Below are positions 3,327 to 56,428 of a stretch of 64,000 bases of DNA, in pieces. A program made the translations under genes and the position numbers. The stretch comes from an uncultured Chloroflexia bacterium (GTDB taxonomy: Bacteria; Chloroflexota; Dehalococcoidia; GIF9; UBA5629), in contig CAWAQY010000004.1 in the NCBI GenBank assembly GCA_963784375.1, positions 56,825 through 120,824 of the forward strand. The letters are read 5' to 3'. Position 1 is the stretch's first letter. Each line of letters opens with the position of its first letter. The notes beneath the pieces were generated by a model. The model did no database searches and was not told the DNA's origin. It worked only from the letters and a program-made list of their open reading frames with translations.

Positions 3327-4803
3327 CTATTTTTCCTTCAGTATTTTCAATGCCTTTTGTCTGGATTCCTGGGACCAGCTTTCAAAGTTCAGAATATCTG
3401 GAATATTATTAGGATCAGTCAGATGCCACTCGAATGGGAATCCGGCATCGATTACCACCGATGATCCGCCTTTTTGTTTTGTCACTCTGTCCTCCCATGA
3501 GTTCCTGGGCACGAGAGCCAAAGCTCCACCCCTGTCTTTGATAATCTGGATGCTCCGCTCCGGGTCGCTCCTGGTTGTCAACGCCCAGATAACCTGGTTA
3601 ATATTGGTGGGGTCGACATCATCATCAACGACGATAATCCAGGATGCTGCAGCGGCGATAAGGCAATGCTTATGGCTCCAGATGGCACTGGCGATTATTT
3701 GAGGTAGCCCGGACATTACTCTTTTGGCAGATACAATGCATAGCCCGACGCCGAAAGCGTGCGGGTGGAAAAATAAATCCTTTACACCGGGGATTTTCAA
3801 AGTATCGATCACATGGTTTTTCAGCAGGGCGGTACCGACAGGTGCTCCAGTTTATGCTGTCATCGGTCATCGGTGTTGATTCCATCGAACCGGTGTGTAT
3901 GGGATTATTCCTGTGGGTGATACATTTTACGTGGAATACCGGTTTCGGGAACTCAGCACCTCCGTAATAGCCGGCGGCTTCACCAAAGGGACCCTCCATC
4001 TTTAATTCGTCTGTAGGGACTTCCCCTTCGAGAATTATTTCGGCATTTGCGGGAACCGGGAGATCATTTGTCTCAGCTTTGATCAACTCAACGGGCGCTT
4101 GCCTCAATGCTCCAGCCATCTCAACTTCAGAAACACCTTCATCAAATGGCGAAGCTGATACAATCGGGTGGGTGGGGTCTTGCCCGATCACCACCGCCAG
4201 CGGCATCGGTTTGCCCAGAGCTTTGTATTTCTCATAGAGGATCCAGCTATGTTGTCCCGGAATGACCCACAACCCTGTCGTATTTTTGTCATGAATTCCC
4301 ATTCTATACATGCCCCAGTTGACCCAACCGCTATCCGGGTCTTTCATGATAACCGTATGGAAAGTACCGATATACCTGTGGCCGTCTTTGGCGTGCCATT
4401 TCGGTGTAGGTAGTTTAAAAAGGTCAACATCTTTTCCCTTCAGGATGTTTTCTTTGCAGGGTCCGCTTTTGACAATCACAGGCTTGACCGGATGCTTGGC
4501 ACGCTGGCGCCAGGTCTCGATGATTTCCCGAGCCGGCGTATTTATTGGAAGGCCCAGTGCCAGAGCGTATCTTCGATAGCTGGCTATGGTGTTAGTGAAG
4601 AATCTGCCGCCGGGATATCCGGTTATGTTTTCAAAAATGACTGCCGGAGCATTAATTCCTCCGGTCTCCCTATCAATCAATCTTTTTGAAATTGCCCCTA
4701 TCTCCTCTTCCCAATGTACTTCTTCTTTTATCCGCAGCAGCTCTCCCTCGCTCTCAAGTTTAGCCAGGAATTCCCGCAAATCTTTATACGCCATTAATCT
4801 CAA
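3327..4803 (-). CDS. UbiD-family (prFMN-dependent) decarboxylase; frameshifted near 3810-3860
   Basis: The N-terminus MAYKDLREFLAKLESEGELLRI is the canonical UbiD start, and the body matches UbiD/3-octaprenyl-4-hydroxybenzoate carboxy-lyase throughout. The C-terminal 161 aa continue in another frame (3327-3812). The local repeat tcatcggtcatcggtg at ~3855 could be a small duplication or an error. Confidence 0.8.
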
Positions 4804-4871: not shown

Positions 4872-6312
4872 TCATTTCAGCGATGGCTCTTTTGCCGCGT
4901 TCTTGCCAGCGGCAAGCCCCTGGGAAGCGGAAGCAGAGGTCATTACCCCCAGTAAGTACGTTTTTGTGCACAGGCCGCCAGTTACTTCCCCGGCAGCATA
5001 GAGTCCCGGAATAGGTTCGGCATATTGGTTTAATACCTGGCCCTTTCCGTTTATCTTTAAGCCGCCTTTCATAGAGGTGGTTGAAGTAACGCATCTCACA
5101 GCGTAATAAGGTCCTTTATCTAATTTGAAAATCGGTGTTGGAATCCCGCCTTTCTGTACCCTTCTGCCAAAGACGGTATCGTAACCCTTTTTATCTATAT
5201 CCGAATTATATTTTTCTATCGTTTTGCTCAGACCTTTGGCATCGATACCGGCAATGTCGGCCAATTTTTCCAGAGTGGTTGCTTTCATTTGCTTGCAACG
5301 TTCCAGGGCAAGCATGAAATCTTTGCCTCCACCTTTGGCATAAGCTTCGCCAGCCGCCAAAATATCTTTCCTGGTTTTATCGCTCCAGATAATAAAGTAA
5401 CCGCCCGATTGTTGCATACCGGCTCCGGTCATGGGCCCATAGAAAGAGTCAGGATACGACTCATCGGCAAACCTTTGCCCTTTAGCGTTTACCATGATCC
5501 CACCGAAATTAAGTGCTCTCAGGGCATTGGAATGGGTTACGGCATCAACCGGCCAGGCCGGTGCAACAGCCTTTCCTATATCCTTTGTGGCAGCACCTAC
5601 AGCCAGCCCCATCTTTAGCCCGTCGCCCATATGGCTTGGAGGCATCACCGGTACGCAATCCACCATGTCAGGGGCGAACTCAGCTACCATTTCAGCATTT
5701 CTGCCAAATCCGCCGCTGGTTATAATTACGGCTTTCCTGGCTTTAAAATATTTAGTCTTGCCGCCCGCGGTAACTATGACTCCAGCCACTTTCCCCGTTT
5801 TGGGGTCCATGATCAAGGCGGGTAGCCCTGTGTTCGTTGAGTATCTCCACACCTTTTCTTCTCGCCCTATCTTCCAGAGCCTTGACTATTTTCAAACCCA
5901 TGTTACCTATTGATAAGGAGCCCAGGCCTCTGGGGACGCTGTGGCCTGGTAGATGAATTACCCCTGGGAATTTTACACCCTCATCCCGGATCATTTTGTA
6001 AACTTCAAGCTGGTTGTCGGCATAAGCTCTGGCTATTTCCGGTTCAGCTCCGCTTACTTCTACCATATCCTTGTAAAGAATTTCGGGTGAATCTTTAATC
6101 CCTTTTGCTTTTTGCTCGTCACTGCCTGCAGTATTGAAACTGCCCCATACCATCCTTAAGCTTCCACCGCACATCTTCCTTACTTCAAGTACAGTCGCGT
6201 TCAATCCTGCCTCGGCAACCTTTATCGAAGCCGGCAGCCCTGCGGTTCCTCCTCCAATGATAATGACATCGGATACGTGGTCCCATTTTTTTGGCATTTC
6301 TGATGCTGACAC
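4872..6312 (-). CDS. FAD-dependent oxidoreductase (fumarate reductase/succinate dehydrogenase flavoprotein-like, FAD_binding_2); frameshifted ~5760-5850
   Basis: The N-terminus has a dinucleotide fold VIIIGGGTAGLPASIKVAEAG..LE. The C-terminal part (4872-5852) carries ...VIITSGGFGRN..., GLYAAGEVTGG. The two ORFs overlap in different frames. Confidence 0.75.
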
Positions 6313-19309: not shown

Positions 19310-20687
19310 CTAGCTTTTAACTAATTTACCCCTGGCGGCAGATATACAGACGCAGCAGAGGCAGAGCCCTGAAAATAGTATAAATGCCATTTTTATACTT
19401 TCCACGAAGGCAGAATAGTATTCCGGTGTCACCTGCGCCGTGCCCATGTAAAGGGAAAACAGCAGCAGGACAATACCCATACTCAATGTCATTCCTATGT
19501 TCCTGGTGGTCACGTCCATGGAAGCAACGACGCCAAAATATTTCCTTTCCACCGAGCTCATCACGGCATTGGTATTCGGGGCAGTAAACAATCCGTGACC
19601 GGCACCGATCAACATCGTGCTGACTATGATCACGGGCAGAGCAGCGTCTGTAATCCCCGCAACCAGGAGCAGCAACCCCACCAGCACTATGCCAATGCCG
19701 ATTGATACGATTACCCTGGGCTGAACCCGGTCGGAAAGTCTGCCTGCAAATGGAGAGAGGATCGCCTGGGAAATGGGCTGCGCTACCAGGACAAATCCGG
19801 CATCCTGGGGGTTGAATCCCTTGATATACTGCAAATAGAGGCTCAGCAACAACGGGATGGCATAGACCGAGCAATAGTAAATCAATTGGGTTAAGTTAGA
19901 AAATGCAAACAACCTGCTCCCGGTCAATAAATGGATATTGAGAATCGGGCTCTCAGTTTTCAATTCCCAGACTCACAAATACCGCTAATACCATGATACC
20001 CAGCGCAATAATCCAGGGCCCCCAGGCTGAGAGAAGTGAAGAAAACCCGTACATGATGCAAAATAATGTAATGCAAAAGAGCCCTGCGCCGACAATATCG
20101 AAATGCTCGCCTTTAGCCTCCGCCCATCTCCCTTTCACCCTGGAAAATATCATAATCAGGGACGGCAATTGAAAAATAAAGTAAAACAGGAAAACGCTTC
20201 TCCATCCCAGGTTCTGGGTGAGTACTCCTGCCACAGTAGGCCCGATTGAAAAACCCAGGGACACCATGGCGGCATTAATTCCCAGCACCTTTCCCCTCTC
20301 AGCAGCAGGGTATCCCGATGTGAGCATAGCGATAGCATTGCTGTAGGCTACGGCAAGACCTACTCCCTGCAGTACCCTGGCTATAATCAACATCCAAAAT
20401 GACGTTGATAAAGCCGATAAAAGTGCTGATGCCGTGGAAACGACCAGGCCTGCGATAAATAACCTCTTTATCCCCCAGACATCAGCCAGCCGTCCCAGAG
20501 GGAGTAAGAAAATGGCTGAAGATAGCCCGAATGCCTGAGATACCCAGCCCAGCTCTACGGCATTCATGGATAGCTCAATGCCCATCGCCGGCAAGGCAAC
20601 ATTAACACCGGTCACAATAACTGGACCTGTCAATGATGTTATTATGGAAATAACCAGGATGTAGTGTTTATCTCGATTTTCTGACAT
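19310..20687 (-). CDS. MFS transporter (DHA-type); frameshifted ~19960
   Basis: The N-terminal piece has ...LPAMGIELSMNAVELGW...PLGRLADVWGIKR. The C-terminal piece is in another frame. It is a paralog of 29442-30838. Confidence 0.75.
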
Positions 20688-29441: not shown

Positions 29442-30838
29442 ATGGATAATTCATTAGATAAGCGTTTTGTACTGGTTATTGCTGCTCTGCCGAATTTCCT
29501 GTTCCCTTTCATGTCTACGGCAATGAACGTGGCATTGCCATCGATAAGCACGGAACTATCAATGAATGCTTTCTTATTGGGGTGGGTGGTGACCGGATAT
29601 CAGCTTGCCTCAGTAATTCTGGTATTGCCTATCGGCAGGCTGCAAGATATTTACAGCAGGAAAAATATTTTACTTGCCGGGGTGTTCCTTTCCACGGCTA
29701 CCTGCCTTATGCTGATGTTTGTTAATTCAGCTACCGAGCTTATTCTATTCCGGGTACTCCAGGGAATCGGAGGAATAATGAGCTTTACCACTTCCATGAC
29801 GATCCTGATTTCGGTCTTTCCGGCAGGGCAAAGAGGCAAAGCCCTGGGTTTTCTTTCCGCCGCAGCTTATGCCGGTCAATCTGCAGGTCCATTTGCAGGG
29901 GGTTTGCTTACCCACTATTTCGGCTGGAGGAGTATTTTCCTGGTAGGAGTACTGATAAGTTTGTTAACAGTCGCTCTTATTTTCTGGAAATTAAAAGGAG
30001 ATTGGGTTGAATCCAAAGGCGAAAAGTTTGATATACTCGGGACCAGTCATACTTGGTTTCGGCCTATTTGCCACGATATACGGACTGTCATCTCTTCCGG
30101 ACACTTCAGGATTATTCCTTGTTGGAATTGGTGTTGCAGGCCTGGTGGCATTTGTTTTCTGTGAATTAAAGGTAAAAAGCCCCATCCTGAATATAGACCT
30201 GTTCAGGAAAAACAGGGTTTTCGCTTTCTCCAGCATGGCAGCACTGATTAATTTCGGAGCAACCTGGCCGGTGGCTTTACTGTTGAGCCTCTATCTGCAA
30301 TACATCAAAGGTTTCGATCCGCAGATAGCAGGTTTCGTACTGATAACCCAGCCTGTAATCCAGGTACTTTGTGCTCCTCTCGCTGGAAGAATATCCGACA
30401 GGATTCAACCACGAATCGTTGCCTCAGCAGCTATGGCTCTCACCACAATCGGTCTTATTATGTTCTCTTTTCTGGATGCAGGGACAAGCATAGTCTATCT
30501 TCATCAGCACTCTGGTGCTGGTAGGGATAGGATTCGCCTTTTTTGGCGCTCCGAACAATAATGCAATCCTGAACTCAGTAGACAAGAAGTTCTACGGAAT
30601 TTCCTCGGCTATCATCTCAATGATGCGGCAGCTAGGGGTAATTATCGGCATGGGCACGATTATGATGTTGTTCTCAATCTACATCGGCAAAGCGCAGATA
30701 ACTCCCGAATATTACCCGCTTTTTTTGATTATAATGAAACTTGGATTTTCAATTTTTGCAGTGCTTTGTTTCGTAGGGATTTTTGCTTCTCTTTCCAGGG
30801 GAAAAACAAAGAATCAACCGGCCGCAATTGAAATTTAA
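29442..30838 (+). CDS. MFS transporter (DHA-type); 2 frameshifts
   Basis: Three overlapping ORF pieces are present. The motif PIGRLQDIYSRKN is found. It is a paralog of 19310-20687. Confidence 0.75.
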
Positions 30839-47973: not shown

Positions 47974-49206
47974 ATGGCACTAGAAGATTACCGGGCTGAT
48001 AAGGAAAGATGCAGTCTCTGTTCTTACTGCAAATGGATTCCACAGGATAAGATCAAGAGCTGGAGGTTTGCTAAAGGCTGCCCCAGCATTGCCTACAGCA
48101 ATTTTAATTCTTATTCAGCACGAGGACGTTTTGCTGTTGCCCGTTCACTGCTGGACGGAAAAGCTGAATATACCGATAGAGTGCTGGATATAATTTATAA
48201 AGATTTGAGCTGCGGTTCCTGCGATGTAAGCGACAAGGTGTGCCGATATAACCTGGAGCCGCTGCAAAACATACTGGAACTAAAAGCCAGAGCTGTCATG
48301 GACGGTCAACTTCTGCCTCAGCATATCCCCATCATTGATAATCTCAAGAAAGAAGACACTATGATGCTGGGTATGGTTAAAGAGAAGCGCGGTGAATGGG
48401 CAAATGGTCTGGATGTCAAGGATCTTACTAAAGAGAAAGCTGAGATTGCCTTTTTTGCCGGCTGCCGGTTCAGTTATGACCAGGAGTTGTGGAAAGTGCC
48501 GCGGGCGGCGATAACTCTGTTTAAGAAAGCCGGGGTTGATATCGGGATTATGGGGCGTGATGAAAGCTGCTGTGGCGGCCGAGCTTACCAGATGGGCTAC
48601 CAGGGAGAATTCGTAAAATTTGCCGAAAATAATATCGAAGCCTGGAAAACAGCAGGAATAAAAACTGTTGTCACATCCTGCTCCGATGGCTACTATACCT
48701 TTAAGCGTCTCTATCCCAAGCTGGGCTCTAAAGTTGAAGTGCTGCATACCGTGGAGTTCGTCGAACGCCTCATCAAGCAAGGTAAATTAAAGTTCAAGCG
48801 GCCTGTTCCAATGACGGTAACCTATCATGACCCCTGCCATCTGGGCAGACAGGGAGAGCCATATGTTCCCTGGAACGGCAAGGAAAGGAAAATCTTCAAC
48901 CAGGTGGTGATATATGACCCGCCGAAGCCCAGGTATAATGGGGCCTGGGGAATTTACGACCCGCCCCGAGAAGTGCTTAAGAGCATCCCCGGTCTAAAGC
49001 TGGTGGAGATGGAAAGAATCAGGGAGTATGCCTGGTGCTGCGGTGCCGGTGGCGGTTGTATTGATGCCTATCCTGAGTTTTCCGACTGGACGGCCGGGGA
49101 AAGAATTGAGGAGGCAAAATCAACCGGAGCTGAAGCTATTGTAACCGCCTGTCCCTGGTGCGAACATAGTTTCATCGATGCTGTCAAGCGGATGGCGGGA
49201 AGATGA
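47974..49206 (+). CDS. Fe-S oxidoreductase with two CCG (Cys-rich) domains, HdrD/GlcF-like
   Basis: The N-terminus has CSLCSYC. Two CCG motifs are present (FFAGC...CCGG and YHDPCHLGR...CCGAGGGC). Confidence 0.75.
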   Translation: MALEDYRADKERCSLCSYCKWIPQDKIKSWRFAKGCPSIAYSNFNSYSARGRFAVARSLLDGKAEYTDRVLDIIYKDLSCGSCDVSDKVCRYNLEPLQNILELKARAVMDGQLLPQHIPIIDNLKKEDTMMLGMVKEKRGEWANGLDVKDLTKEKAEIAFFAGCRFSYDQELWKVPRAAITLFKKAGVDIGIMGRDESCCGGRAYQMGYQGEFVKFAENNIEAWKTAGIKTVVTSCSDGYYTFKRLYPKLGSKVEVLHTVEFVERLIKQGKLKFKRPVPMTVTYHDPCHLGRQGEPYVPWNGKERKIFNQVVIYDPPKPRYNGAWGIYDPPREVLKSIPGLKLVEMERIREYAWCCGAGGGCIDAYPEFSDWTAGERIEEAKSTGAEAIVTACPWCEHSFIDAVKRMAGR

Positions 49207-49324
49207 AGGTCTTTGATATTATCGAACTGGTCAGCAGGCGACGAATAGTTAGCAATCCAAAAGATTTGAAGTTTTAGTTTCGAGGTTATAGGATCAAAAC
49301 TTAAAGTGAGAAGAGAAAGGAGAA

Positions 49325-50894
49325 ATGGCTAATTCGAAAGAAATATATCAGGAATTCGAAGCCATCGTAGGACCGGACAACATTTCGGATGATCCCGCCG
49401 TGCTGGACACATATGTGACTCCTATGGCGCAGGCTCAGCATCATATGGGGCCGGTTTATGGTGTAACTACACCCAGAGGATTGGCTATTTTGATGCCCGG
49501 AAGCACAGAAGAAGTCCAGACGATAGTCAAAGTTTGTAACAAATACAAGATAAAATTCCATGCCGCCAGCACATTCTGGACATCACGCGCAAATATTTGT
49601 GATGACAATGCTATTACGCTGGATATGAGACGCATGGACCGGATTCTGGAGATAAATGAGAAGAACCAGTATGCCGTAATCGAGCCTTATGTGATCGGCG
49701 CCACGCTTCAGGCTGAGGCCATGAAGGTTGGTTTGAATACTACTATTATCGGTGCCGGCTCCAGCTGTTCTCCTCTGGCCAGTGCCTGCTCCAACGGCGG
49801 TCCATCGCCCTTTGCCCTATATGGCGGTCTTACCCGCGAGAATCTACTGTCTTTTGAATGGGTAATGCCGAACGGCGAGATTCTGAGGTCGGGGTCTCTG
49901 GGGAAGGGTTGGGCTGGTTTTGTGATGATGGGCCGGGCCTCGGTATTAGAGGACTAATGATGGGACCCAGGGAAGTATGGGAGCTATGGGCGTATTTACC
50001 AAATGCGCGATTAAGCTGTTTCCCTGGCCGGGGCCTGCCGGATTTCCCAGTGACGGAATAATCCCGGCTTATAAAGCCATGCTGCCACCTAATATCGTGG
50101 GACATACATTGGCCTGGCCATCCTGGGAAGCTTATGCCAACGGTCTTTACAGAATCTGGGATAGCGATATCAGCGGTTATTATTCTCACCGGCAATATAA
50201 TATGTTCGGCAGAGACCTCAAAGGGGCCATGATCAAAATCCTGGCCGACCCAACCAAGACACTTAACGACCTCGAGGAGCTGATGAAGGACCCGGAATTA
50301 CGCAGAAAAACAGAGGAGATGAAACGCGATTTTCAGATTATTCTGGCCGGTATGACGCAGAGGGATATCGAATGGCAGGAGAAAGTCCTGGACAAAATAC
50401 TGGCCGAGACCGGGGGCTGGAAAGCATCTCTGATGGAAGAAGCCGGTATTAAAGACTGGAGCCTGCTCTTCTTGCTCAGGTTGGGACATAAGAATTTGAA
50501 TTTTGTTTTTGCCGGCGGCTATGAAGGTTGTTTTGGGATTGGCGGAGTTCCGGATTATTCCTGCCCCAAAGTTGAAATGGCAGGTGAGTTCAAACGGAAA
50601 TGGGAACAGGAACACGACGCTTTCGTGGCGGCTGGAGGAGATTGTATGATGGGCGGTATGGGCGGTATCGGAGGCGGAGGGATAACCGCCTGGGAGAACT
50701 TCACTCATTTTGACTCACACGATGCAAAATCGGTGAAGGAAACACATGAATTTTTTGAAGCTACATCCAAGTTCGGCAAAGAAAACGGACTGGGCGCAAT
50801 GGAGAGAATGTACGCAATATCCAGGCGGGATGACGGCTACGGATTGACTAAAGAAGAGCAGGAGAAAAAGGCATCGGCTTCGGCAAGCCTTTAG
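49325..50894 (+). CDS. FAD-linked oxidase, VAO/PCMH-family-like (approx 520 aa); 2 frameshifts ~49900-49980
   Basis: The FAD_binding_4 domain is present (TPRGLAILMPGSTEEVQTIVKVCNKYKI...). A long C-terminal substrate domain follows. Confidence 0.65.
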
Positions 50895-51205: not shown

Positions 51206-51442
51206 TCAATTTAATGGTGACTTCTGTTGTCTTTCCCACTTTTCGAAAATGGCCTGAGCAACCCAGGTTGCTACCGGAAGCCCAAGAATGGTGGCTGCAC
51301 CTCGCGCTACTCTCCATGCGAGGATGGGCAGATTCTTGATGTGGATATCTGTTGTTGGTCCGTTCTTTTTGATTTTGAGCTTCTCCATGCGAAGTCCTAA
51401 AGCGGGTGACGAAGTATCTGTTAGTGTATGTAATGGTTTCAT
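51206..51442 (-). CDS. ribbon-helix-helix (Arc/CopG/FitA-like) antitoxin-type protein, orphan
   Basis: The segment TDIHIKNLPILAWRVARGAATILGLPVATWVAQAIFE resembles the LHIRNLPDEL... RHH family. Confidence 0.35.
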   Translation of the reverse strand: MKPLHTLTDTSSPALGLRMEKLKIKKNGPTTDIHIKNLPILAWRVARGAATILGLPVATWVAQAIFEKWERQQKSPLN

Positions 51443-51682: not shown

Positions 51683-52693
51683 CTACCACTCAATAGTATC
51701 AATTTGTTTAACAATACCCATGCTAGCCCAAATAGAAGGCAACCCTGGCTGCGGGAAAAGGCTTCTGGCTATGTAATCTTTCCCGGTTACCACATCAACG
51801 ATTTTGTCTGCATTAATACCAGGTCTGAAATCAGTACAGTCAATATATACCAAGCCATGGTCAATAGTTTGGAATGCATTGAGAGCGTGCCCACCGCCGG
51901 TAGGATTACTTTTGCTTGGTCCCACCTGAATACAAACATACGCCGCTCTAATCCCCGCGGACTCCGCATCGTTATGAACTCTTTCAGCAAAATCAGCGCA
52001 AACAAATTTCCCCAAAACGTAAGGAATTTGATCGGTATTATCTTTATAAAGGAAAGATTTTAGTTGCTCCCAGGTTGGATTGGAGGCACCGGGATTATTC
52101 TTGAGTATTATGAGATGCCCATCCGCACCTGCTACCACACCTCTGGTTACACGAACATATTCTTCATTTGGTTTTAAAGTATTACTATTTGTGGGATTTT
52201 GAGCGGACTCGTATGTGGTCTGCGCCTGTTGAGATATGGTTATAGTAACCTGGGGCATATTTTGTATCGTTGGAGGAAGACTTGCTGCATTTTGATTCTT
52301 ATTGGCATCAACAACAGCGAAATCTGCCCTATTTACAACCAGATCGACATTTTCAGTGATCTTCCCTCCAGTACTTAATACATCATTTACCACATCATCA
52401 TTTGAAATGATTAAAGAGACCGAAGCCAATGCTACTACACTCAGTACCGTGCAAAGTATCAAGGCTTTTGAGATAATCCCCAAATTTACTCGTTCAGTAG
52501 TATTGTTTTCATTTGGCCTACCAAACAAGTTCGGCGTTTTTAGCTTATAGGTATCATTTAGTTGGCCAATAGTAAATCTCATTTTACAATAGGGATTAAT
52601 GCATTCGTATAATCCCCAGTTAGGGTTAAACCAGAGCGACGCGTTGCCGCAATTTAGACATCTACAGTTACTCATCATTTCCTTGCCCCTCAA
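51683..52693 (-). CDS. zinc-ribbon + TM + transglutaminase-like cysteine-protease-domain protein
   Basis: The N-terminus has a zinc ribbon (CRCLNCG...CINPYC), followed by a TM helix. The C-terminus has the transglutaminase-like core (VCADFAERVHNDAESAGIRAAYV...GGGHALNAF...IDCTD), which supplies a Cys-His-Asp triad. Confidence 0.55.
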   Translation of the reverse strand: MRGKEMMSNCRCLNCGNASLWFNPNWGLYECINPYCKMRFTIGQLNDTYKLKTPNLFGRPNENNTTERVNLGIISKALILCTVLSVVALASVSLIISNDDVVNDVLSTGGKITENVDLVVNRADFAVVDANKNQNAASLPPTIQNMPQVTITISQQAQTTYESAQNPTNSNTLKPNEEYVRVTRGVVAGADGHLIILKNNPGASNPTWEQLKSFLYKDNTDQIPYVLGKFVCADFAERVHNDAESAGIRAAYVCIQVGPSKSNPTGGGHALNAFQTIDHGLVYIDCTDFRPGINADKIVDVVTGKDYIARSLFPQPGLPSIWASMGIVKQIDTIEW

Positions 52694-52883
52694 TGATATT
52701 CTGCTTTTGTGAAGGCGAGTTTACTTCAGGTTGCCACCAAAATAGAGTTCCACACTTCCTGCAGAGTTTATCACCCGGGATAACTGGATACATGCATTCA
52801 GGGCAGATATAGTTTTCTTGCATTTTATTCTTACCGATAGTTATCTTCCGACTGAAATATATGTTTACTTCACTTTTTTGCAT
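52668..52883 (-). CDS. double zinc-ribbon small protein
   Basis: The pattern YICPECMYPVIPGDKLCRKCG is present. The real start is probably the internal M (MQENY). Confidence 0.5.
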   Translation of the reverse strand: MQKSEVNIYFSRKITIGKNKMQENYICPECMYPVIPGDKLCRKCGTLFWWQPEVNSPSQKQNIIEGQGNDE

Positions 52884-53338
52884 TCGATATGCTTATTAAA
52901 AAAGCCTTCCAGTAGTTTGGGAATCTCAATACTCATTGGAGTCACAGGGCCGTGTCGTGATGAACTTTTACTCTGGGGAACGGTTCCATGATTAGCATTT
53001 ATATGTCGCTGCTGTTGGCGTTGGTTCAGATTTGTTGACACCGATTCCTGACTATCAACTGTGGGCCGAGGCCGTCCGGACTGTTCATGCCATCCTGGTT
53101 GCTGGTACCATGTTTGTTGCTGCCCGTTATTCTGATGACCGTGCAAGAAAGGTAGCGAAGGAGGTATTTGCTGCGCTACCCAATTTAAGCTAATGCCACA
53201 ATTACCACAAAACCTGTCTCCATAGGACACCGGTGCCCTACAATTGGGACAATAATCCGTCTGCCACATGACTGCTACTCTTTCTTTTGAGAACTGCTTC
53301 ATCCATAACTGTTCTCTACTATAGAAACGATGTAGCAT
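52865..53338 (-). CDS. double zinc-ribbon protein with Gln-rich tail
   Basis: The pattern YCPNCRAPVSYGDRFCGNCG is present. The real start is probably the internal M (MWQTDY). Confidence 0.5.
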   Translation of the reverse strand: MLHRFYSREQLWMKQFSKERVAVMWQTDYCPNCRAPVSYGDRFCGNCGISLNWVAQQIPPSLPFLHGHQNNGQQQTWYQQPGWHEQSGRPRPTVDSQESVSTNLNQRQQQRHINANHGTVPQSKSSSRHGPVTPMSIEIPKLLEGFFNKHIECKKVK

Positions 53339-53600
53339 GATTAAAAGTTTACGCCCAAAATATTACAACCATGGTGCAAACCGCAGGGTACACTCCCAAT
53401 CTGTTACCCCTTTTTGACAAAAAGAGTGTAATACCTTATTCTTAATAATGCCATCGACTATTGGCGGTGAGCGTTGTGCAAATAGAATACTAAAGAGCGC
53501 TTGGATCAGTAATGACCGAGACGTGGAATAGAGCGGTTGATTTTAGGCCTTCTCGGCAATGCTGAGAAGGTTTTTTATTTTAAATGCAGACTTAAATCAC

Positions 53601-54497
53601 ATGAAAACGATAGGTTTTATCGGTGCCGGAATTACAGGGACATCTTTAGCTGTACGCCTTCACCAAAAAGGCTATCGGATCACTGCAGTATCCAGCCGGA
53701 CTCTCTCCTCCGCAGAAGAACTAGCTAAAAGGATACGAAATTGTCAGGTCTGCAATTCAGCTCAAGAAGTTGCCGATAAAGCTCAGTTTATTTTCATCAC
53801 TACACCGGATGATAGTATCAACGAAGTAGCTATCGGGGTTCGCTGGCACAAAGGGCAAAACGTAGTGCATTGCAGCGGAGTTCATTCTACAAGTATCATT
53901 GAATCGGTAACACAATGTGGAGCTAAACCAGGCTGCTTCCACCCTTTGCAGACTTTTGCCGGTATAGAAAAGGCTATTGAGAATCTACCCGGGTCTACGT
54001 TTGCCATCGAATCTGAAGAGCCACTTTTAACCATGCTTAAGGAAATGGCTACGGTAATAGGGGGAAACTGGGTAATTCTTAAAGCCAGTGATAAAATACT
54101 CTATCACACCGCAGCGGTCTTTGCCTGCAACTATCTGGTCACCCTTATTAAACTTGCTACTGATTTGTGGCAGGACTTTGGAGTATCGAGAGAACAGGCA
54201 ATCAAAGCGCTCATGCCTCTGCTTCGGGGTACTTTGAGCAACATTGAAAACATCGGTTTGCCTGGTTGCCTGACTGGTCCCATTGCCAGAGGAGACTTGG
54301 GCACCATTAGAAAACACCTTGAGGCATTAGAAGCAGATAAGCCTCATCTACTGAATAGTTATAGTCAACTGGGGTTACAAACTATACCCATTGCTCTTGA
54401 GAAAGGGAAAATTGATTTAGAAACAGCGCAGGAGCTGCAAGCACTATTAATGAAACAAATACAGGGAGTACTCGAATCGCCAGCGGTTGGTAAGTAA
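53601..54497 (+). CDS. Rossmann-fold NAD(P)-binding protein (F420/NADP-oxidoreductase N-domain + DUF2520-like C-domain)
   Basis: The dinucleotide-binding motif is present (IGFIGAGITGTSLAVRL). The track ORF starts earlier, at 53559, without an RBS. Confidence 0.6.
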   Translation: MKTIGFIGAGITGTSLAVRLHQKGYRITAVSSRTLSSAEELAKRIRNCQVCNSAQEVADKAQFIFITTPDDSINEVAIGVRWHKGQNVVHCSGVHSTSIIESVTQCGAKPGCFHPLQTFAGIEKAIENLPGSTFAIESEEPLLTMLKEMATVIGGNWVILKASDKILYHTAAVFACNYLVTLIKLATDLWQDFGVSREQAIKALMPLLRGTLSNIENIGLPGCLTGPIARGDLGTIRKHLEALEADKPHLLNSYSQLGLQTIPIALEKGKIDLETAQELQALLMKQIQGVLESPAVGK

Positions 54498-54581: not shown

Positions 54582-55584
54582 TTATAATCCTGAGGATTTC
54601 AATACACGTAATGCTCTCAATGTTACCCATTTATTGGGTTGCTTCTTAGCACCAAAATTAACCCATGTTTTACCGGTATAGTCATATTCTAACAACCAAC
54701 GCCCCAGGGCATCTTGCTTCTCATTGATTATCTTCATCGCTTTTGCCAACCGTGGATCATTGCCATAACCTAAACCGACTAGAGCTTCAACAATCTGCAA
54801 TAAGTCCGTCACATAGAAGACCGGAAAACCGAACTTCCACCAATTCCCACTGGGTTTATTGCTATAGCCGCAGGGATAATCCGCCTTTGCCGGGTCTGTG
54901 CTGAAAAGAAAATCCACTCCTGTGTGAATGGCATTGTCGATCAAGGGCGTCCTTTTTCCTTCGGCAATTTACTGAAAGCAAGCATCACTTTTACTGCCCC
55001 CCAGGCACAGGGCAGTTTATTATTTGAACCGCAGGCGAAGTTTGGTCCGCATTTCCCGGCATAGTAGCGCACCGGGGCCTCTTTATCTGTCATTGGCGCT
55101 ATACCTTCACCTGTGACGCTTCTTGCCATCCACTCAAATGTCTTATCTAAACGAGAGTCTTTACAACCCAAATCCAGAAGAGAGGCACAAAGATTACCTT
55201 GCAAACAGTCCACTGTCCCCGAAGGAAGTCCGTTCACTGTGAATTGCCCGTTTTCCGTCAGAGCATGATCCAGTACATAAGAGCAGGCAGAGGTTATTCG
55301 ATTGTCTATTTCAAGGGATGCACCAAGTTGGGCTAATAAGATAACCGACCACACCGTTCCAGTGTATTTGGGATAGTATCCTGCTCCCGGTTTTTCCCAG
55401 TACCCTTCTTCTTCATATTTGATAGAACTTGTGCAATCTGACCTTTTTCATGCGCTTGCTTCTTGGCCGTCGCCAATTCCTTTGTATCGGCATCAATCAG
55501 GTCACGTAAAGCAAGATATCTCACGCCTATATCGTCTGGTTCCAGCAACCAATCAACTGGTTTTTTCTCCATCGTCCTGTTCAT
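54582..55584 (-). CDS. hypothetical protein, possibly alpha/alpha-toroid prenyltransferase/squalene-oxidase-repeat-like; split into 3 ORFs
   Basis: It has a QW-like motif (EKQDALGRW). Three consecutive overlapping ORFs are present. The call is weak. Confidence 0.3.
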
Positions 55585-55827: not shown

Positions 55828-56428
55828 CTAAGTTCTGATGATTGAGGTACGAAAGACTTTCCAAAGACTTTCGTATTTCTTTTCAAGGTTAAAATCATAG
55901 TTGCTTAAAGCCCAGATATTTACCAGTCCTTGTATCATACCAAACAGAATAAGTGCGGCTGCTTCAATATCTATATCCTCTTTGACCTCTCCGGTCTTTA
56001 TCCCTTCAGATAATAGATGTTTCAAGCTGATTACATAGTTATTTATGACCTCAGAAACCTTTTTGTTTAGTTTTTTATCGCCAAAACTGATAATTTCGGC
56101 TATAACCTGAAAAGATATACCTTTCCTTTGCTGTATTGTTGACAGATGGTTCTTTAACACAGTGTCGAGAAACTCTAAGCGAAGTGAAGTTTGTATAAAT
56201 ATGGTCGTTGATATCTGTCAGAAGGTCATCTGCAATTTGGTCAGCCAATCCGGACAAGACCTCACCTTTACTTTTAAAATGTCGATAAATAGCTCCCTCA
56301 GATATACCAACTTCTTTGGCGATTTTGCCAACAGTCACATGTTCACTCCCATGTTTTACCACCAGTTTTCGGGCAGCATCAATTATCTGGTCTTGCCTTA
56401 TATTTGATTTAAGACGTTTTTTAACCAT
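55828..56428 (-). CDS. TetR/AcrR-family regulator; frameshifted
   Basis: The N-terminal HTH is present (IIDAARKLVVKHGSEHVTVGKIAKEVGISEGAIYRHF). The C-terminal piece lies in another frame. Confidence 0.65.

Follow-up and report, generated by a model that had tools for sequence, protein, structure and literature searches.

How many genes underlie a row of three zinc-ribbon open reading frames (ORFs), and what kind of protein do they encode? In a 64,000-nucleotide stretch of contig CAWAQY010000004.1 from an uncultured Chloroflexia bacterium of the Dehalococcoidia (the window, by which we mean the whole stretch of DNA analysed), three successive ORFs, here called A, B and C, lie on the minus strand at 52865-53338, 52668-52883 and 51683-52693, with longest-ORF lengths of 157, 71 and 336 amino acids (aa), that of C being counted from a TTG at 52693. 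As the initial annotation had recorded, the three are consecutive and each carries a CxxC...CxxC motif near its N-terminus; the only other ORF of at least 60 aa with such a motif in the window is ferredoxin-like, and three ribbons in a row are therefore not a matter of chance. That annotation saw in them an operon of three separate genes, in an arrangement resembling small adaptors partnered with a protease. Our analysis points to another answer, namely that the locus probably holds two genes: A, plus a gene for a membrane-anchored thiol-type enzyme, made up of B and C together and broken by a 1-nucleotide (nt) indel.

The case for a single B-C gene starts from the junction of the two ORFs. 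B (52668..52823, minus strand) is 51 aa long from the ATG at 52823 (71 aa in the longest ORF, from 52883) and consists of one ribbon (CPEC-x10-CRKC; CPECMYPVIPGDKLCRKC, 52752..52805, minus strand) and a short tail. B is read in frame 2 and C in frame 1, the B stop overlaps the C ATG (52678) by 11 nt, and inside the overlap lies a G4 run (CCCC on the plus strand; 52686..52689), a candidate site for a 1-nt indel. Indeed, with one G removed from this run, B and C merge into a continuous ORF of 379 aa, and the count of three separate genes is not confirmed. Residues 5-379 of the fused ORF align with residues 2-427 of the homologue P0005 in one high-scoring segment pair (E 1e-95), and P0003 gives a similar alignment. 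In the closest relatives of C, P0002-P0005 (40-52% identity), the C-type ribbon is preceded within a single polypeptide by one or two ribbons of the A/B type; B is 37% identical to residues 2-44 of P0005. B by itself has no detectable homologue among 5.8 billion clusters, and an exact look-up with two starts did not find it in the public protein collection, where C is present as P0001 (331 aa, ATG 52678, 100% identical) and A as P0121 (145 aa). Judged from these sequences, B is most probably no separate gene but the N-terminal part of gene C, severed by a frameshift. The indel would most likely sit in the G4 run at 52686-52689, with either an assembly error or a recent mutation as its cause.

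Breaks of this kind recur in the window. Counting a gene as frameshift-split when its pieces lie in different reading frames of the 64-kb sequence, we found at least seven others, or about one break per 7 kb. These are UbiD (3327-4803), with its N-terminal and core domains apart from the UbiD_C domain; a FAD_binding_2 flavoprotein (4872-6312), in pieces corresponding to model positions 1-170 and 166-408; two MFS transporters (19310-20687 and 29442-30561), both with pieces in different frames; a FAD_binding_4 oxidase (49325-50894), apparently with two shifts within about 60 nt; a prenyltransferase-like gene (54582-55584) in three pieces, one break falling at an A5 run; and a TetR regulator (55828-56428), whose TetR_N and TetR_C domains occupy separate ORFs. 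Some breaks coincide with homopolymers (A5, T4) while others fall elsewhere, and the FAD_binding_2 junction is among those away from long homopolymers. Since the window is so rich in split genes, the B/C split most likely has the same cause as the rest, be it assembly indels or real decay.

Were it real decay, a true frameshift would have left either a B-C pseudogene or only a truncated C translated from the internal ATG, as one instance of a general decay of the genome. The number of split genes agrees with this, as do the breaks away from long homopolymers, which are less typical of pure homopolymer sequencing error, and the lack in C of some 70 residues that form extra transmembrane (TM) segments in its closest relatives. 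However, the C-terminal domain of C is intact over 160 aa and keeps all of its invariant residues, and the splitting of essential-type genes (UbiD, MFS, flavoproteins) at such a density would be more typical of long-read assembly indels than of a living genome. We hold decay to be unlikely. Whether through long-read indels or through decay, the contig is error-prone or belongs to a decaying genome, and its small adjacent ORFs should not be taken for operons until collinearity with single-gene homologues has been checked.

This caution applies to A, B and C themselves. As a genuine three-gene operon, they would encode two small ribbon proteins, A and B, serving as adaptors or regulators of a membrane-anchored protease, C. 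The ORFs share a strand, no terminator is predicted between them, and C starts with an ATG of its own, preceded by a Shine-Dalgarno-like GAGGGG; moreover, P0002-P0004 are fusions of A-type ribbons with C-type proteins, a link of the Rosetta-stone type that suggests joint function. The overlapping or abutting starts and stops described at first are found between B and C, with their 11-nt overlap, but not between A and B, which from their likely starts (ATG 53269 for A, ATG 52823 for B) are separated by a gap of 41 nt. Co-conservation, on which the initial annotation itself had made the operon depend, came out negative. A ribbon ORF tightly coupled to the family gene, abutting it upstream, occurs in only 2 of 82 related loci (L047 and L052), and in two more a ribbon ORF lies 170-930 nt further upstream. 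None of 14 loci with A-like genes in JGI metagenomes has a C-type domain gene downstream, and the genes that do follow are different ones. The contigs of P0122 and P0123, two full-length homologues of A, are too short for a view of the flanking genes. Because coupled loci are so few, because A-like genes do not adjoin the domain, and because B lacks homologues while B plus C is collinear with P0005, the three-gene adaptor/protease module is not supported; in a window full of frameshift-split genes, with a single G keeping B from C, we regard the operon as decidedly unlikely.

Gene A (52865..53269, minus strand) stands apart. As judged from its relatives, it is a genuine independent gene encoding a conserved small protein, because full-length homologues end at the same stop and the 14 A-like loci have other genes downstream. 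The longest ORF reaches 53338, and the ATG at 53269, which gives a protein of 134 aa, is the start kept in homologues. Two of these, P0122 and P0123 (141 aa; 60% and 51% identity across 99% of A), have A's ribbon, its Q/P-rich linker, the motif (V/M)TPxxxEI(P/S)KLLxxFF and the same stop position. The ribbon (CPNC-x10-CGNC; CPNCRAPVSYGDRFCGNC, 53198..53251, minus strand) reaches 25.6 bits against Zn_Ribbon_1, just above the cut-off of 25. The initial annotation had taken A and B for double-zinc-ribbon proteins. Each has four cysteines, however, which make one ribbon, the Pfam models that they match are those of single ribbons, and their DZR matches of 24.7 and 20 bits fall below the cut-off of 27.3 and cover model positions 25-45 of 45. 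It was right about a Gln-rich tail on one of the small proteins, the tail of A being Gln/Asn/Pro-rich. In A, P0122 and P0123 alike, the highest 11-residue hydrophobic moment (0.61-0.64) falls in the conserved C-terminal motif (VTPMSIEIPKLLEGFFNKH in A; 52889..52945, minus strand), which suggests an amphipathic, possibly membrane-binding helix. A may be pictured as a small cytoplasmic protein in which a Gln/Pro-rich linker connects a single zinc ribbon to a conserved amphipathic helix at the C-terminus. Its ribbon region is 60% identical to residues 1-48 of P0004.

A-like proteins, with the ribbon, the Q/P-rich linker and an amphipathic C-terminal EISKLLxxFF motif, make up a small family of their own, and those at the JGI metagenome loci L086-L095 are 68-122 aa long. 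On several of the JGI contigs L085-L094 the next gene encodes an N-terminally anchored protein of 137-179 aa and is followed by a gene for an OmpR-type response regulator (for example L087 1040-2325 and L094 4028-6919), with a histidine kinase after the regulator in L085 and L094, where the contig is long enough. In both contexts, there and in the window, the gene that comes after the A-like one encodes a membrane-anchored extracytoplasmic protein.

C (51683..52678, minus strand) encodes 331 aa from the ATG at 52678, and we number its residues in this form. As first described, it combines a zinc ribbon and one TM helix with a C-terminal domain in which the motifs FVCADFAE, GIRAAYV, GGGHALNAF and LVYIDCT occur; a stalk joins the helix to the domain. 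The ribbon (CLNC-x15-CINPYC, residues 7-31; 52586..52660, minus strand) is modelled with strands at 15-18 and 23-26 at a predicted local distance difference test score (pLDDT) of about 90, and a basic segment separates it from the TM helix. The latter (residues 66-92; 52403..52483, minus strand) has a Kyte-Doolittle 19-residue mean of 2.75 and is part of a model helix spanning 66-102. The low-complexity stalk (residues 93-171; 52166..52402, minus strand; pLDDT <50) contains the juxtamembrane motif ENVDLVVNRADF, seen in the alignment with P0005. This motif, ENxDLxVxRxxL, is retained in C, although in P0002-P0005 about 70 residues that C lacks form extra hydrophobic (TM) segments after the first TM helix and ahead of the domain. 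The C-terminal domain, 160 aa with a papain/transglutaminase-like core, occupies 51686..52165 (minus strand).

Across the family, a hydrophobic segment precedes the domain in 208 of 227 proteins; it lies within the first 30 residues in 81 of them, 14 have a lipobox, and 67 (30%) carry at least two CxxC motifs ahead of the first TM segment. The layout of ribbon, TM segment and domain is a recurrent family architecture. The domain is also found fused to modules of extracellular type, namely PKD, fn3, Big, CARDB, BACON, ricin-type lectin, CAP and trypsin-like peptidase domains. Because of these hydrophobic segments, lipoboxes, CxxC placements and fusion modules, we infer that the domain, together with the stalk of C, lies outside the membrane and the ribbons in the cytoplasm.

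What, then, is the domain? The conserved unit of C is its last 155-160 residues, within which Cys227, Asp229, His264, Asp273, Asp280, Asp291 and Tyr302 show no variation across 79 diverse homologues. Among 130 cluster representatives that formed a second set, the Cys227 and Asp280 columns are again invariant and the His264 column is at least 90% conserved. AlphaFold (AF2) models the domain with a pLDDT of 94.9 and a predicted template modelling score of 0.90. Its order is a helix of 14 residues opened by Cys227 (227-240), a strand (GIRAAYVCI), a strand with His264 (262-271) and a strand with Asp280 (275-281); in the numbering of the domain model, Cys63 starts helix 63-76, His100 is on strand 98-107 and Asp116 on strand 111-116. 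As modelled, this helix(Cys)-strand-strand(His)-strand(Asp) succession is the core that defines the papain/transglutaminase-like thiol enzymes, and the predicted catalytic residues are Cys227 (51998..52000), His264 (51887..51889) and Asp280 (51839..51841, all minus strand). When the domain model was compared with the PDB by Foldseek, the best match was TglA of S. pyogenes (9crn; E 0.024, probability 0.98), and the papain/transglutaminase fold dominated the list, accounting for most of the top 30 matches. PeiP, arylamine N-acetyltransferases, 3isr, TG3, FXIII, TG2, VASH1, the C3 domain of PMT toxin, SpvD and PaJOS are among them, and the matches in BFVD include a phage 'transglutaminase', an 'Agglutinin C-terminal domain' protein, 'Papain fold toxin 1' proteins and again PeiP. 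An arylamine N-acetyltransferase-like function was considered and rejected, an acetyl-CoA-dependent reaction being implausible outside the cell. The transglutaminase-like core proposed by the initial annotation is thus borne out as far as the invariant Cys-His-Asp set, its position in the model and the weak Foldseek matches go, but not as membership of Transglut_core (PF01841), which has no match at E<=10 in the window domain and is absent among the top families of the 79 and 130 members.

Might the conserved Cys, His and Asp merely hold together a non-catalytic binding module? No characterised enzyme gives a significant match, which agrees with such a module. Yet Cys227, His264 and Asp280 stay invariant at only about 35-50% identity and occupy the canonical positions of the fold, and we consider a purely structural role very improbable. 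Another possibility is a true transglutaminase that cross-links proteins of the surface layer (S-layer) rather than a hydrolase. In its favour are a Cys-His-Asp core of the same kind, Foldseek matches to TG2, TG3 and FXIII, the apparently extracytoplasmic position of the domain, and its occurrence in lineages (Dehalococcoidia, Methanosarcinales and ANME-1) that rely on protein surface layers. However, hydrolases (PeiP, 3isr, VASH1, PaJOS) and the deamidase family PF15644 match equally well or better, and most characterised prokaryotic transglutaminase-like proteins are hydrolases. Cross-linking as the function of the domain is therefore unlikely in our view.

The family is large. Homologues of C number 307 at E<=1e-3 in a 90%-clustered collection, and there are 326 sites in GTDB species representatives; the best 80 loci come mostly from Dehalococcoidia, others belonging to Methanosarcina, Methanolobus, ANME-1/Methanophagales and Bathyarchaeia. 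One homologue, P0060 ('DhcFL2_04155'), is a protein of Dehalococcoides mccartyi. A domain-only profile retrieves 2995 representatives of 50%-identity clusters at E<=1e-3, 845 of them at <1e-30, and this domain family (about 3000 clusters at 50% identity) is not described in curated databases. We read it as a distinct unannotated family within the papain/transglutaminase-like superfamily, separate from Transglut_core, C71 and PF15644. New here is the large unnamed family; its superfamily is known. Its architectures are notably varied: in some members the domain is duplicated in tandem, and others bear AN1-type zinc fingers at the N-terminus (P0124-P0126, P0203-P0253; L052 1696-2037). In one subfamily, about 35 extra aa (YYGxAExxVDLxxIxxIIDG) are inserted after the DxTD...Y motif and before the catalytic Cys.

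Several results weigh against the reading of the locus as A plus a broken gene for a membrane-anchored thiol enzyme. C has its own ATG, overlapping the B stop, with GAGGGG 7 nt upstream of it, an arrangement that fits translationally coupled genes too; to a genuine fission of B and C with translational coupling we give a small chance. The structural matches are distant, the best Foldseek E of 0.024 going with TM-scores of 0.3-0.44, and no match reached E<=1e-3 with the full-length and domain models against the PDB or in BFVD. Pfam and NCBIfam give no match for C, sequence searches of the PDB with the single protein, a full-length profile and a domain-only profile returned nothing relevant, and an hhalign comparison of the family profile with PeiP was negative (probability 0.15%). 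The positive-inside signal at the TM helix of C is weak, at 2 versus 1 Lys/Arg. Finally, no conserved gene partner emerged when the two closest flanking genes on either side were clustered across 80 loci; synteny was confined to one closely related lipoprotein subgroup. PHROGs and PADLOC searches with C or its domain also gave nothing useful, and a role in a defence system was rejected, there being neither a PADLOC match nor conserved neighbours.

If A plus a broken B-C gene is nevertheless the right account, the intact B-C product would be a single-pass membrane protein of about 379 aa, with two ribbons in the cytoplasm, a single TM helix and, beyond a disordered stalk, an extracytoplasmic domain of 160 aa. 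Its Cys227 thiolate, activated by the histidine, would attack an amide or isopeptide carbonyl of an envelope, cell-surface or secreted protein to form a thioester intermediate, and this would be resolved by water (as in a peptidase, amidase or deamidase) or, less likely, by an amine (as in a transamidase or transglutaminase). Both the catalytic activity and the class of substrate are thus predictions, and the cytoplasmic ribbons may serve in partner binding or regulation. Dehalococcoides lacks murein and is covered by a protein surface layer; S-layers occur in Methanosarcinales and ANME archaea as well. Speculatively, the phyletic pattern hints at the processing of surface proteins. A bolder proposal, doubtful as it stands, is that the family forms a large group of minimal extracytoplasmic Cys-His-Asp enzymes dedicated to surface-layer processing or cross-linking, whose cytoplasmic ribbons, in cis or in trans via a membrane-binding amphipathic helix of A, couple them to an intracellular signal or partner. 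Should the enzyme assignment be true, the family would be a sizeable unannotated branch of the papain/transglutaminase-like superfamily, displayed on the cells of organohalide-respiring Dehalococcoidia and methane-cycling archaea, about whose envelope biogenesis little is understood. With a Pfam-type model of the domain, thousands of 'hypothetical proteins' would gain an annotation.

The surroundings of the locus can be described briefly. In the divergent intergenic region upstream of A, a strong terminator-like hairpin lies on the plus strand at 53545-53583 (13-bp stem with 6 GC pairs, and a T-run). It overlaps the longest-ORF start of a DUF2520/Rossmann-like gene (53559-54497), the real start of which is probably a Met at 53604, and as there is no plus-strand gene upstream to terminate, the hairpin may be a leader or attenuator element. 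Directly downstream of C is an ORF of 78 aa without a Pfam match (51206-51442, minus strand). Converging on the C gene (47974-50894, plus strand) are a gene for a CCG-domain protein (cysteine-rich, heterodisulfide-reductase/GlcF-like) and then the split FAD_binding_4 oxidase, a pair that looks like a glycolate-oxidase/lactate-dehydrogenase-type module.

How does the B-C protein compare with known systems? Our literature search on S. pyogenes TglA, on transglutaminase-like proteins of Dehalococcoides and on zinc-ribbon/transglutaminase architectures found nothing relevant. The ribbons of A, B and the N-termini of the fused homologues share the CPxC-x10-FCxxCG pattern of Zn_Ribbon_1 (PF13240), Zn_ribbon_3 (PF13248) and DZR (PF12773); B has below-threshold matches to all three, only A reaches a cut-off, and the ribbons of B and C stay below all of them. 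With the Transglut_core-type superfamily (PF01841; 3isr, TG2/TG3/FXIII, TglA 9crn) the C domain has in common the order Cys...His...Asp, the Cys starting a helix (FVCADFAE) and the His (GGHALNAF) and Asp (LVYIDCT) lying on successive strands, whereas it is much smaller, at 160 aa, and has an N-terminal element of its own, GADGHxIxLxNNPxAxNPTWxEL...DxTD. The sole curated sequence model to come near is PF15644 (papain fold toxin 1, a glutamine deamidase family, Gln_amidase), matched by 3 of the 130 members at E<=1e-3. In P0125 and P0126, both with two tandem copies of the domain, it scores 22.5 and 21.0 bits against a cut-off of 24.1, over a span from just after the Cys to the Asp; protein C of the window gives no match, and PF15644 domains are toxin modules of polymorphic toxins, a context other than that of C. 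PeiP/PeiW (MEROPS C71, PDB 8z4f) offers a parallel, being a Cys-His-Asp hydrolase of the transglutaminase fold whose target, the archaeal cell envelope, is attacked from outside, and PeiP is the second-best Foldseek PDB match to the C domain (E 0.25). It carries N-terminal pseudomurein-binding repeats, where C has a zinc ribbon and a TM helix instead. TgpA of Pseudomonas aeruginosa is a membrane protein with a periplasmic transglutaminase-like domain, a bona fide Transglut_core, preceded by a multi-TM N-terminal domain and with no zinc ribbon. A few family members show faint TgpA_N matches in a multi-TM region (E>=0.2), and what TgpA and C have in common is the general plan of an N-terminal membrane anchor followed by an extracytoplasmic transglutaminase-like domain.

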